Source: Kofleriaceae bacterium (GTDB lineage Bacteria > Myxococcota_A > Polyangia > Haliangiales > Haliangiaceae). Taken from it: a DNA stretch of 64,000 nucleotides. The stretch spans positions 673,664-737,663 of the forward strand of contig CAXNMK010000002.1 of the NCBI GenBank assembly GCA_964203225.1, in the 5' to 3' direction. Numbering within the stretch: the stretch's first letter is position 1; every line of letters starts with the position of its first letter. Under the pieces are notes generated by a model. The model did no database searches. It was not told where the DNA came from and was given only the letters and a program-made list of their open reading frames with translations. The position numbers and the translations under genes were made by a program. This document shows, piece by piece, positions 14,459-18,120 of this stretch.

Positions 14459-16489
14459 ATGATCAAAGGCCAGCACCGTGGAAGCGGGTACGAGTCTCAC
14501 GACCAGGCGGCGGATCGGGATCGCCCGGCGCCCGGGAAGCGGACCTTGACCGCCGGCATCGCGGCGGTTCGCAACCCCGGCGCGATCGCGACGAGCGGCG
14601 ATCCGCACCACCGGCTCGACGCCGGCGACGCCCCGGCCGCGCCGTTCGCCCCCCGCCTGTTCGACGAAGCGCTCGGCTTCTTCACGCCGCCCGCGGTGCA
14701 GATGCAGGGCGGCGCCGACGGCGACGCCATCCATCACGCCGCCGCCCACGGCACCAGCGGCGCCAGCGGTCGGTTGCCGTTCATCGAAAAGATCCAGCCG
14801 CTGTTCGGTGAGCACGACGTGTCGTCGGTGCAGGCCCACACCGGCAGCGCGGCGTCGGCGGGCGCCGGTGCGATGGGTGCCGAGGCCTACGCGGTCGGCG
14901 ATCATGTCGCCTTCGGCGGCACCCCAACGCTGCACACCGCGGCCCACGAGGCCGCGCACGTGGTGCAGCAGCGCGGCGGCGTGACGCTCAAGGGTGGCGT
15001 CGGCCAGGCCGGGGATCCATACGAACGACATGCCGACGCGGTCGCCGACCAGGTCGTGCGCGGTGAATCGGCCGCGGGGTTGCTCGACGCGATGCCCGGC
15101 AGTGGCGGCCAGGTCCGTAGCAGCCGGCAGATGCCGGCGCAGATGGTGCAGCTGAAGAACAAGGCTGCCCCCGGCACGGCTCGGCGAGGCGTTGCCCCCG
15201 GCGAAAACGAAGCCGCCGCCGCACACGACGATGACCTGGCAGCCCTGGCCGAGAACCAGCCCGCCACAACGAGCGGGGACGATCTGTCCTCGTTGCTCAG
15301 CTCCCTCCCGTCACCACCAACCGAATTCTACGACGAGAGGGCGAACGCCCTGCTGCTGGTGTCCGCGCATGCGTGGTGCGTCGAGCTCGCGTCCGCGCTG
15401 AACACCGTGGCCGGTGGGCACATTGGCGATCCCGTGGCCGCAAGTTCGGGGCTCGTGCACTTCGAATCCCTCGCCCGCAACCTCCGCCAGGCATGCGTCT
15501 CATTGATGAATGCCTCGAGCGTCACGCGCGCTGACCGCACGCAGGACCCGACGCTTCCATCGCTCGGAGATCTCCAAGCCTGGAACCAGACCGTCCACCA
15601 TATCCGAAGCTACCTCCAGGTGCCGGCGTTTGCTTGCGTACGCAACGAACTCGATGCCGCGACGCGCGCTGCCAACGACGCCAGTGTCACGATGTTCCAG
15701 GCCCATCAGGTTCACCAGGCGCGCACGTCGTGGCGTACGAACGACGAAGAGATCGATTGCGCGGATGCAAGAAAGAGTGAAAACCCGGCCACCCGCGCGG
15801 CTGAACGGAAGCGCAAACGAGGCGTCGCCAGGAACGAGGTCGATGAAGTATTCGAAGCGGCGGGCATGAAGTCGCAGTTCGTCTCAGATCATCAGAAGAC
15901 GGAACAGGGTGGCGATCAGATCGCGGACTGGTGCGGATTCACGGTCGCCGCAAATCTCGTTCGCGGGGCCGGCATGGATCCGGATCACGCCGCGTCGATG
16001 GCGCACACGACCAAGGGCGTGGCCTTCTTCACCTACCAACGCGAAAAGAGCTCGGCCAGCGTCCAGAACTACGTATTGAACGAAGACAATCAGTGGAAGA
16101 CTGTTGAGGAGTATCATCGCTCCCGTGGTTCGGCGCGTCGGTGGATCTCCCCAGCGGACATGGCTGAGATCTATGCAGCCGGTAAGGAGCCTCAGGTTCA
16201 GCCTGGTGACGTCGTCTTCTGCGATACCGGAGACGAACCCACCGCCAATCACTACGCGATGGCGGATGCGTCGATCGACGGATCCGGAAACATGACGACC
16301 ATCGAAGGCAACGCGACGGGCATGAAGGCCGCCGCCGACGGCGGGGCCGAGCGGGACAGAGCCGGGAACCTGAAATCAGGGACGTACAAAAATGCACGGG
16401 TTCGCCGCGGTGCTGAACGACATGCGCGGTCACGCGCGCGGCAAGGAGGAAGGCCCCAATCAGGCCCATCGCGGTGTCGGTGCGCGTAA
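14459..16489 (+). CDS. DUF4157 (zincin-like HExxH) N-terminal domain protein with C-terminal CHAP/NlpC-P60-like papain-fold amidase domain; polymorphic-toxin-like
   Basis: DUF4157 hallmarks are present: [21 protein letters not shown]...[11 protein letters not shown]...[13 protein letters not shown] and [16 protein letters not shown]. The C-terminal region has a Cys ([11 protein letters not shown]), a His (ANHYAMADA) and TIEGN, as in CHAP domains. GC drops sharply from about 15250 onward. Confidence 0.75.
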
Positions 16490-16583
16490 CGGCAGCAAGA
16501 CGACGCGTGCGATCGGACGCCCATCCGTCGTCGATTTCGAGCCGCACACCTACGCGAAGAGATTGCCCTCGGACAAATAGCAG

Positions 16584-16730
16584 GTGATCTGCGAGGGCAG
16601 CGCGGCGGGTGACGTGGTGAGCGAGTACGACGCCGACGGCAACCGCGTGCGCGCTCGCACCAGCGCGGGCCTCGAGGTCGCCACGGCGTTCGACGGCAAC
16701 GGCCGCCCCGTGGGCGCGGCGGACCGCTGC
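16584..16730 (+). pseudogene. RHS/YD-repeat protein fragment
   Basis: The peptide GDVVSEYDADGNRVRARTSAGLEVATAFDGNGRPVGAADR shows two YD-repeat units. It has no start codon and no core or toxin context. Confidence 0.4.
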
Positions 16731-17117
16731 TATGCGCTTTCGTTTAGCCTACCAACTTACACACAACGTCGATGCCGCGAGCGAAGGGCCCACTGCGCCC
16801 GAGGACCTCGACCAACCCGTCGACACCGGCGTCTTTGCGACCCGAAGATCACCAACTGGCACGTCTGCGACCCTCTGTGACGCCAGGAACAGCCACCAAG
16901 CCGCGCTCAACGCCCCCTTCGAACTTGGCCCTCGACAGCCCGACCCCGTGAGGTTTTCCAACACATTTTGGTTTTCCTACACACGTTTCCATCTGCCTTC
17001 GGCGACCATCAAGGATGAAAGAAAGCGATCGAACGGTCAGCATTGCTCGGCCGGCCACGCCATTTTGTACCCGACGGCACCCGAATCGTGGTGGGAGATG
17101 CCGATCGCCCTGGGCCC

Positions 17118-17145
17118 TTGACAGCCCCACCTGGTTTATTAGTAT
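17118..17145 (+). promoter_or_regulatory. sigma-70-like promoter: TTGACA (17118-17123), 16-nt spacer, TAGTAT (17140-17145), followed by a GGGAGG RBS before the GTG at 17170
   Basis: Read directly. It is a perfect -35 hexamer in an AT-rich patch, which is atypical for the surrounding 70 % GC DNA. Confidence 0.45.
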
Positions 17146-17169
17146 TACATTGCATAGGGAGGATCGTTC

Positions 17170-18120
17170 GTGAAGAAAACAATTTTGATAATTTCGGCTA
17201 CCTTTGCATCGTCATTATTCGTGGGAGCATGTGCGCTCTTTAGTGGAATGGGCGGTGGCTCGGGTGGGGGTGGTGGAGGTGACCGTCCGGCGTATTGCCG
17301 GAACGTCGAGATGTCGGCCGCTCCGGCGTCCATTGCCTCGGAAATGCGCACCAAGTCCGGGCACTTGTTCACAGCGCTCGACAACCGCTGTAGCTCGTTG
17401 TGCAACAACGAAACGGCATGTGTAGAGGGCAAGGAAATCTTGCGCCAATACTATGCTGCGAGTCTCGGGACGCACCTCGCGTCTCCTCATGCATACCCGA
17501 CCTTGCTCGAGGCGATCACAAGTTCGCATATTACCGTTGACGGTGTTCGCGAACGCTATGCGGTCACGGAGTTCCTCCCAATTGCCAATCAGATTAGCGA
17601 AGCGCGCGCAAACGAAGCTCGTTCGAAGCTATCCACGACGGGAGCGTTCGACCGTCATACCGACGGCAATGAGTGCGTTTTCTCGAAGAACGCTTTCGCA
17701 ACTCCTGAGAATCAAAATCAAGAGTTGGCGTACGTGTTTCGAGGCGCGGGAACACAGGTCTATTACCGATGCTACTCCGATCGCGCATTTCAGACTTTTC
17801 CGAATCGCGACGGGCAGGAGCTTTACCTCGTGATCGAGGCCGAAGGGATTCGCTCTGGCTTCGCAGAGGACGCCTACGTTCAGATCGACTTTCGTTCGCT
17901 CGGTGATCCACGCACGCTCGGGAAAGTCAAGGTATCCGACGGTGTGTTCACTGTTCCTGACAGCGGACGTTCCGACGCCAAGGCCGTTGTCTATCGCATC
18001 ACGTTGAGGAACCAGTACATCAATGCGTATCAGGACGTGGTGCAGGATGGCGCGATCGTTCGTCAACCGGTCTATGGAAAAGAGCAGGTTGCGTATTCGC
18101 GTTTCGCATGGTTTCGCTGA
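17170..18120 (+). CDS. low-GC lipoprotein, hypothetical (candidate immunity protein of the adjacent toxin-like gene)
   Basis: MKKTILIISATFASSLFVGAC lipobox. About 50 % GC with E. coli-like codon usage. A strong Shine-Dalgarno sequence precedes it and there is a clean TGA stop. Confidence 0.7.
   Translation: MKKTILIISATFASSLFVGACALFSGMGGGSGGGGGGDRPAYCRNVEMSAAPASIASEMRTKSGHLFTALDNRCSSLCNNETACVEGKEILRQYYAASLGTHLASPHAYPTLLEAITSSHITVDGVRERYAVTEFLPIANQISEARANEARSKLSTTGAFDRHTDGNECVFSKNAFATPENQNQELAYVFRGAGTQVYYRCYSDRAFQTFPNRDGQELYLVIEAEGIRSGFAEDAYVQIDFRSLGDPRTLGKVKVSDGVFTVPDSGRSDAKAVVYRITLRNQYINAYQDVVQDGAIVRQPVYGKEQVAYSRFAWFR

Follow-up and report, generated by a model that had tools for sequence, protein, structure and literature searches.

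An orphan, probably decaying DUF4157-marked effector gene with a divergent CHAP-like domain in an insertion-sequence-scarred patch of a Kofleriaceae genome

Introduction

Does a toxin-like gene followed on the same strand by a lipoprotein gene, in a GC-poor patch of a GC-rich genome, represent a working toxin accompanied by its immunity gene, or two neighbours of distinct origin? This question is raised by a locus found in a stretch of 64,000 nucleotides from a Kofleriaceae bacterium (GenBank assembly GCA_964203225.1, contig CAXNMK010000002.1, positions 673,664 to 737,663), hereafter called the window, within which all coordinates are given. A sequence-only reading of this window had proposed that a foreign amidase toxin tip and its immunity gene were recombined onto a resident N-terminal module carrying a DUF4157 domain. 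The follow-up analysis reported here points instead, as the reading that we hold to be rather probable, to an orphan and probably decaying DUF4157-marked effector of the class tied to extracellular contractile injection systems (eCIS), lying in a mosaic patch scarred by insertion sequences (IS).

According to this proposal, the product would comprise a leader devoid of signal peptide and carrying PGKRTLT, a DUF4157 module, a linker with a helical pre-domain, and a cysteine hydrolase of the CHAP/NlpC-P60 type. The leader would steer this product into a contractile-injection particle whose genes lie at another place in the genome and, after delivery, the C-terminal domain would cleave the target bacterium's peptidoglycan, either in its stem peptides or at the amidase bond. 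Regarding the history of the locus, an N-module of resident type would have been fused to a C-terminal module circulating in Myxococcota, Actinomycetota and Cyanobacteria, a 1-nucleotide insertion in a run of A would have interrupted the gene and removed the strands bearing GRPSxVDFE, and the patch would also have gathered an RHS-like scrap, an independently transcribed lipoprotein gene and a truncated ISKra4 transposase.

Architecture of the effector gene

The whole effector gene spans positions 14459 to 16580 on the forward strand, as delimited from the list of open reading frames (ORFs), a three-frame translation and the continuation in the +1 frame seen with the homologues P0002, P0003 and P0004. 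The ORF of 676 residues previously reported at 14459-16489 (forward strand) does exist, although as a frameshifted reading, since the frameshift-corrected product comprises about 706-707 residues and stops at the TAG of 16578-16580. The N-terminal leader (14459-14788, forward strand) lacks a hydrophobic signal peptide and carries PGKRTLT at residues 25-31 (nucleotides 14531-14551). Of 120 N-terminal homologues, 39 have a GK[RQST][TS]x[TV] motif at a position matching that of the window leader, and PGKRTL(T/S/V) at residues ~20-40 is its recurring form. Because of this recurrence among the relatives of the N-module, the ATG at 14459 is favoured over the shorter start of the public protein record, P0001, which begins 29 codons 3' of this ATG and drops the conserved PGKRTLT. 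By analogy with the AlgoCIS cargo, which is built from a disordered N-terminal domain, DUF4157 and a C-terminal domain and whose loading needs the N-terminal domain and not DUF4157 (preprint 10.64898/2026.05.27.728243), the leader is probably a cargo-loading region.

The leader is followed by a zincin-like DUF4157/eCIS_core domain (PF13699; 14789-14980, forward strand), detected over residues 111-174 at 49.6 bits (cutoff 22; E=4.4e-13). Both the HExxH motif (HEAAH, residues 163-167, nucleotides 14945-14959) and the downstream Glu (DPYERHAD) are intact in the translation, thereby confirming the DUF4157 N-terminus that the sequence-only reading had recognized. Further downstream, a pre-domain covers residues ~285-454 (15311-15820, forward strand) and, as alignments show, is conserved with the closest ~40 family members, the top family matches covering the corresponding profile positions 20-190. 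In the AlphaFold2 (AF2) model of the C-terminal module, this pre-domain is predicted to be helical, with a predicted local distance difference test score (pLDDT) of 72-89.

When the first 275 residues were used as a query, 1,057 proteins were retrieved at E<=1e-10, chiefly from metagenome-assembled genomes (MAGs) of Myxococcota (Kofleriaceae, Polyangia), and DUF4157 is present in all N-module relatives among the matches listed. Those sharing 50-80% identity with the window protein end in PF09017 (microbial transglutaminase), PF13930 (endonuclease), PF14113 (Tae4), PF14521, PF20085 or nothing annotated, so that the anticipated joining of this N-module to different C-termini in other genomes was indeed found. 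In turn, the C-terminal module is also met with other DUF4157 N-termini or with none; its closest relatives, P0002 to P0004, possess it without HExxH, and a separate eCIS_core/DUF4157 gene lies ~2 kb away at the P0003 locus. The gene is a fusion, in which an N-module of native GC content and resident type is joined, around residues 250-285, to an independently circulating C-terminal module.

The C-terminal catalytic domain and its family

As judged from its predicted fold and not from a hidden Markov model (HMM) threshold, the remainder of the product (15821-16580, forward strand) is a divergent and insertion-rich member of the papain-fold CHAP/NlpC-P60 superfamily. Based on an alignment of 30 sequences, the AF2 model of the catalytic domain reaches a pLDDT of 84.8 and a predicted template modelling score of 0.84 (the model of the 430-residue C-terminal module, based on four sequences, stays at a pLDDT of 48.8 and does not serve for the catalytic portion), and its fold matches in BFVD are phage CHAP and NlpC/P60 proteins, with a best E-value of 1.4e-4. 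The motifs singled out by the sequence-only reading, namely DWCG (Cys492, nucleotides 15932-15934), NHYAMA (His598, 16250-16252) and TIEGN (Glu616-Gly-Asn618, 16304-16312), are all present on the forward strand and prove invariant or nearly so. More precisely, this holds family-wide for W-C-G, the His of NH[YI], the G-N of ExGN and GR.S..D, the latter being represented here by GRPSVVDFE at about 16515-16541 (forward strand) in the shifted frame; the 30 diverse aligned sequences show no variation at C38, H144 and N164, and most of them keep E162. The His/ExN region of the window protein also aligns with the His/EQN region of the Ly7917 CHAP domain. The catalytic set proposed from these residues is Cys492-His598-Glu616-Asn618.

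In a database of 5.8 billion clusters, only four proteins share words with the C-terminal region, including the genome's own P0001, the three others being P0002 (49% identity), P0003 (38%) and P0004 (37%). When 1.84 billion representative proteins were searched with a profile, 245 relatives were retrieved at E<=1e-3, of which 153 at E<=1e-10; the family is spread over Myxococcota, Actinomycetota and Cyanobacteria, and the core common to its members consists of the last ~230 residues. No match was obtained by scanning genomes with the alignment of the narrow toxin subfamily or by running PADLOC on the toxin, profile searches of PDB sequences with the toxin module and the catalytic domain gave no significant match, and a metagenome scan for the close toxin subfamily returned only two already known loci. 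A Pfam scan of 93 family members identified eCIS_core in 12, PG_binding_1 in nine, CHAP (weakly) in five and Amidase_6 in five, the rarer co-domains being Amidase_3 (two members), SH3_3 (one) and Peptidase_C70 (one). Since PG_binding_1, Amidase_3 and SH3_3 point in that direction, peptidoglycan would be the substrate. Besides, a hydrophobic N-terminus is absent in 143 of 150 family representatives and present in the seven others; export in this family would therefore overwhelmingly follow a non-Sec route.

Beyond the window gene, the combination of the pre-domain and a ~250-residue CHAP-like domain ending in GRPSxVDFE might define an undescribed family of cell-wall hydrolases, amounting to ~245 clusters at 50% identity, almost always Sec-less, without immunity gene, and forming a dedicated class of contractile-injection-system cargo encoded apart from the machine operon. 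This broader proposal is tentative, and we give it appreciably less than even credence.

The genomic homologue loci considered (L007-L026) come from Solirubrobacter, deltaproteobacterial and Kofleriaceae MAGs, and cyanobacteria. In Solirubrobacter phytolaccae (L020, 9530-11839), two CHAP-like paralogues of 372 and 371 residues, 45% identical to each other, are arranged in tandem, and the flanking genes are conserved between this locus and L025. In the Microcoleaceae and Crinalium MAGs (L023 and L024), a family member of 517 residues overlaps by 52 nucleotides the end of an upstream ORF of 1,628 residues, itself 36% identical over 103 residues to a DUF4157-bearing Kofleriaceae protein of L017. 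This arrangement may correspond to a large effector operon.

An apparent frameshift within the catalytic domain

Frame comparison with the homologues revealed an apparent 1-nucleotide insertion in an A5 homopolymer at 16388-16392 (forward strand). The shift cuts the last ~62 residues off the catalytic domain and turns the annotated ORF into an Arg-rich tail. P0002, P0003 and P0004 all extend beyond this tail and align to the +1-frame ORF of 16392-16580, which ends in GSKTTRAIGRPSVVDFEPHTYAKRLPSDK followed by the stop codon, and the deletion of one A from the A5 run makes the product collinear with P0002. The lost segment is formed by high-confidence beta-strands in the AF2 model and holds the Ser and Asp of GRPSxVDFE, invariant in the alignment of 30 diverse members. 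With these strands lost, the gene as written is therefore most likely an inactivated relic. In this context, programmed frameshifting was considered and ruled out, as every homologue encodes the domain in a single frame.

Whether the lesion belongs to the organism or to its assembly was evaluated on other genes. No frameshift was found at 15 other homopolymer runs distributed within 22 genes having full-length domain matches, which indicates that the lesion is probably genuine, and the public record P0001 displays the identical shifted tail. We consider it fairly probable that the frameshift is real rather than an assembly error.

Base composition and the neighbouring lipoprotein gene

The mean GC content of the window is 70.4%, with a standard deviation of 4.9 over 300-nucleotide windows, and nowhere but in the effector-lipoprotein region does it stay below 60% over an extended stretch. 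Segment by segment, the GC content amounts to 73% in the N-terminal part of the toxin (14459-15250), 62.5% in its C-terminal region (15251-16390), 67% over its 3' end and the RHS-like piece (16391-16900), 56% over the spacer and the lipoprotein gene (16901-18230), and 72% from 18231, that is, from the ISKra4 remnant onward. Along the region, the profile falls gradually to 59-64% (15400-16300), comes back to 65-69% (16300-16900) and then goes down to 53-59% (16900-18250). The sequence-only reading had described a collapse from about 70% to about 50% near 15250, sustained through the lipoprotein gene. A drop is real, the profile is not uniform and the composition changes near the fusion point, but there is neither a step to ~50% at 15250 nor a sustained low, given the recovery over 16300-16900.

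The GC content at the first and second codon positions (GC1 and GC2) of the toxin C-terminal region, 0.63 and 0.49, respectively, is identical to that of P0002, meaning that the drop in this region is partly a matter of amino-acid composition. At the third codon position (GC3), the toxin goes from ~0.9 in its N-terminal part to ~0.75 in its C-terminal region, the homologous regions in other high-GC hosts being at 0.84-0.87, and the lipoprotein gene, which deviates much further and whose codon usage is strongly foreign, has a GC3 of 0.62 compared to 0.88 in its 53% identical homologue, P0006, and ~0.9 in host genes. Since their GC3 values differ and they lie ~500 nucleotides apart with near-native GC in between, the two GC-poor pieces differ in compositional history, which is at odds with the idea of a single foreign cassette comprising the toxin tip and its immunity gene.

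The lipoprotein gene was correctly predicted at 17170-18120 (forward strand) and codes for an orphan-family protein of 316 residues, with a lipobox Cys21 (LFVGAC), conserved in the alignment of its homologues, and six further conserved Cys, on the basis of which the protein is considered extracytoplasmic. It starts ~590 nucleotides downstream of the toxin on the same strand and is preceded, within 17118-17163 (forward strand), by a sigma-70-like promoter (TTGACA-16-TAGTAT, 17118-17145) and a ribosome-binding site (GGGAGGA, 17157-17163). This promoter, which matches at 10 of 12 positions, is the sole promoter-like match between 14200 and 18500. Only two homologues, 96% and 53% identical, were found among the 5.8 billion clusters; searches of Pfam, NCBIfam, PADLOC and PDB sequences gave no match with the lipoprotein, nor did a metagenome scan. 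The 53% homologue P0006 has pectin-acetylesterase/dCMP-deaminase genes on one side and a serine-dehydratase gene on the other, and no toxin lies nearby. On the toxin side, the closest homologues are followed by housekeeping genes in convergent orientation (acyl-CoA dehydrogenase or Orn/DAP decarboxylase), the next downstream gene is convergent in 12 of the 16 genomic toxin-homologue loci, and an all-against-all BLAST of the neighbours at these 16 loci disclosed neither a conserved partner nor any relative of the lipoprotein. Overall, about 20 loci with toxin-domain homologues were covered, and all of them lack both a lipoprotein relative and a downstream gene that is conserved.

Because the lipoprotein gene has its own promoter, its homologue P0006 has no toxin nearby and the toxin family has no conserved neighbours, proximity is the only link between the two genes. 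The immunity role that had been assigned to the lipoprotein is thus unsupported. The gene is a foreign, recently acquired and independently transcribed insertion, a neighbour by insertion history rather than a demonstrable immunity partner.

A single metagenome of the Joint Genome Institute (3300059473) holds the 96% copy of the lipoprotein, on a contig of 1.5 kb, together with the 53% homologue and the toxin homologue P0004. The shortness of this contig suggests that assembly breaks at flanking repeats, which would fit an IS-bordered insertion.

Delivery route and alternative readings

DUF4157 is described as an eCIS core and toxin marker, located N-terminal to or beside toxins of which most have no immunity gene, and the toxicity of EAT10, a peptidoglycan-hydrolase toxin of this class, is 10^4-fold higher in the periplasm (PMC8213781). 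The domain is present in 36% of eCIS-associated toxins (EATs) versus 0.06% of non-EATs (PMC11297309). The window gene displays the combination by which EATs are recognized, DUF4157 in or beside the protein plus a variable C-terminal effector domain.

Several points weigh against the reading of the locus as an orphan eCIS-class effector. Pfam scans of the window ORFs, in accordance with the earlier remark that neither a type VI secretion system (T6SS) nor an eCIS is encoded there, detected no sheath, tube, baseplate, DUF4255, AAA or T6SS families; no eCIS operon hence lies within about ten genes inside the 64-kb window, the distance at which 88% of described EATs are found (PMC11297309). Among 140 neighbour ORFs at the homologue loci, the 25 most frequent families include no eCIS structural family, single occurrences being possible. 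With no machine genes in the window and no structural family among those 25, it is the association of DUF4157 with eCIS, and this association only, that would point to delivery by a contractile particle. As to the enzyme, CHAP (PF05257) remains below its cutoff of 26 bits, with 17.2 bits for the annotated ORF and 22.0 bits for the corrected module, and is matched in only one of four close homologues and five of the 93 family members; likewise, a Foldseek search of the catalytic-domain model against the PDB gave nothing below E=0.05, the top matches being CHAP lysins. The papain-fold C-terminus proposed earlier is consequently upheld by predicted fold and conserved residues, but not by the CHAP HMM, and peptidoglycan would be the substrate by way of fold and co-domains. 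Finally, a sequencing error in the homopolymer could explain the frameshift, and, although no immunity gene is conserved, the lipoprotein might still be one here, a periplasmic lipoprotein being of a suitable type for an amidase immunity factor.

These points open the way to three other accounts. If the frameshift were an assembly error, the gene would be intact, functional and ~706 residues long, everything else remaining as proposed. One surplus base within a homopolymer is indeed a classic type of error, and the 63 codons 3' of the shift stay open, with a GC3 of 0.78 and all conserved residues kept. The clean homopolymer runs in the 22 genes with full-length domain matches, the shifted tail shared by P0001 and the visible degeneration of the surroundings (truncated IS, RHS scrap) nevertheless speak for a genuine lesion, making the error a serious possibility but the less probable one. 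Much less probable in our view is that the amidase tip and the lipoprotein gene were recombined together onto the DUF4157 module and still work, the lipoprotein protecting against attack by siblings. T6SS amidase effectors are as a rule countered by periplasmic immunity proteins, and an extracytoplasmic lipoprotein would suit such a role, its gene lying ~590 nucleotides downstream on the toxin's strand and having, like the toxin C-terminal region, a lower GC content than the genome. This account is difficult to reconcile with the GC3 of 0.75 versus 0.62 and the near-native segment between the two pieces, with the promoter and ribosome-binding site proper to the lipoprotein gene, with P0006 lying toxin-free among metabolic genes, with the housekeeping genes (acyl-CoA dehydrogenase, Orn/DAP decarboxylase) that run convergently after the closest toxin homologues, with 16 loci devoid of a conserved neighbour or lipoprotein relative, and with the frameshift in the toxin gene itself.

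A further account, unlikely too although slightly less so than toxin and immunity, views the protein as a cell-wall hydrolase acting on its own producer, in lysis-mediated release or developmental autolysis, with DUF4157 and the pre-domain serving as a regulatory or latency module. The family is without Sec signals and without immunity genes next to it, and its members occur dispersed among housekeeping genes; Geller et al. suggest that such toxins may contribute to producer lysis, and mycobacterial DUF4157 genes adjoin the housekeeping NlpC/P60 enzyme RipC (PMC12067865). A cytoplasmic hydrolase would still need a route to the wall, however, the N-module set is fused to clearly offensive domains (endonuclease, Tae4, transglutaminase), and published work shows a high specificity of DUF4157 for eCIS contexts. 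The orphan, probably decaying eCIS-class effector is for these reasons the reading that we retain.

Other features of the patch and its surroundings

Directly after the corrected toxin stop, and in frame with it, comes a YD/RHS-like fragment (16584-16730, forward strand) with a GC content of 67%. It contains two YD-like units only, EYDADGNRV and AFDGNGRPV, lying 20 residues apart, and the ORF of 16584-16880 scores 17.3 bits against RHS_repeat (E=0.0066), below the cutoff of 22. The piece has no NCBIfam match, no RHS core and no DPxGL boundary motif, and its tblastn search against plasmids reached E=0.5 at best. It is possibly a scrap of a degraded RHS gene, and with such a sub-threshold match and no RHS core, the suggestion that an RHS relic recalls earlier toxin cassettes at this site is not sustained.

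On the other side of the lipoprotein gene, the presence of an ISKra4-family transposase remnant bordering the patch was corroborated (18232-19128, reverse strand; NF033572), with a C-terminal part of ~230 residues recognizable and the N-terminal ~190 residues missing or out of frame. The reverse-strand ORF of 18232-19602 matches NF033572 with E=5.3e-47 and 160.9 bits, below the curated cutoff of 205, and since this match is limited to model positions 190-420 of 422, the element is a truncated remnant. Its 5' side is overlapped by a forward-strand ORF of ~268 codons (19440-20246) with a GC3 of 0.79, in line with the native bias, and without Pfam or PADLOC match; the C-terminal part of this ORF (LISFVLREYVPSMPMTPHTFLQRVLSITGRKEISDDQELVAFYENPRDAL) has the look of a genuine protein, which may be another fragment of a mobile element. 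A search for repeats around the patch returned short chance-level repeats only, with no IS ends or target duplications, and no tRNA gene is present in the 64-kb window.

Directly upstream of the effector gene, a Ser/Thr protein kinase of 660 residues and then a sigma-54-dependent activator are encoded at 10949-14315 (forward strand), the activator (12963-14315) having an N-terminus that is FHA-like by eye; sigma-54 activators, of which the window holds at least four with this one included, are also found at 3-1412, 34238-35986 and 58370-59608. Beyond the IS-scarred patch, a cluster for branched-chain amino-acid biosynthesis (21295-29098, forward strand) codes for a class IV aminotransferase, a dihydroxy-acid dehydratase, the large subunit of acetolactate synthase, a ketol-acid reductoisomerase and a threonine dehydratase. 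As this ilv cluster begins ~1 kb past the patch, the latter is embedded in core metabolism. Other neighbours in the window include SelA and RelA/SpoT and, at its far end (59979-63316, forward strand), a type II secretion GspC-like protein (PF11356) and a GspD secretin, which appear unrelated to the effector.

Comparison with known systems

With its non-Sec leader, a DUF4157 domain bearing HExxH and a variable C-terminal effector domain, the window protein resembles EATs such as the AlgoCIS cargo proteins Cgo1 and Cgo2, among which immunity genes are frequently absent and peptidoglycan hydrolase effectors, e.g., EAT10, are known. It departs from them in that no eCIS operon is found within 64 kb, in contrast to the proximity usual for EATs, in that the gene is frameshifted, and in that its C-terminal family is no annotated Pfam family. 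Unlike CHAP/NlpC-P60 amidases and endopeptidases such as the LysGH15 CHAP domain, CHAPK, MepS and LytE, the window domain comprises ~250 residues, against ~90-130 aligned, with large insertions and the extra invariant C-terminal GRPSxVDFE; it also scores below the Pfam CHAP cutoff, and most members of its family have no signal peptide. Finally, a conserved N-terminal trafficking module combined with interchangeable C-terminal toxin domains is shared with polymorphic toxin systems (Zhang et al. 2012; RHS/YD, T6SS Tae/Tai), as is the possible leftover RHS fragment downstream. Here, in contrast to those systems, no conserved immunity gene follows immediately downstream, an array of alternative tips is absent and, unlike in RHS toxins, the fragment is reduced to two sub-threshold repeats devoid of RHS core and DPxGL boundary.

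Significance

The window copy itself, as a probable decaying relic whose pairing with an immunity gene is not upheld, has limited value beyond annotation, and the novelty is modest, residing in the unannotated CHAP-like family and not in the architecture, which is of a known eCIS/polymorphic-toxin class. DUF4157-tagged effectors are nonetheless the main handle on eCIS cargo, and most of their C-termini are unannotated. With the present locus, one of these C-termini is placed in a divergent CHAP/NlpC-P60 family, widespread in soil phyla and encoded without Sec signals or linked immunity genes, which adds to the question of how producers cope with antibacterial cargo. If the tentative reading of an undescribed cargo family were true, orphan contractile-injection-system effectors and their immunity-free biology would become directly testable.

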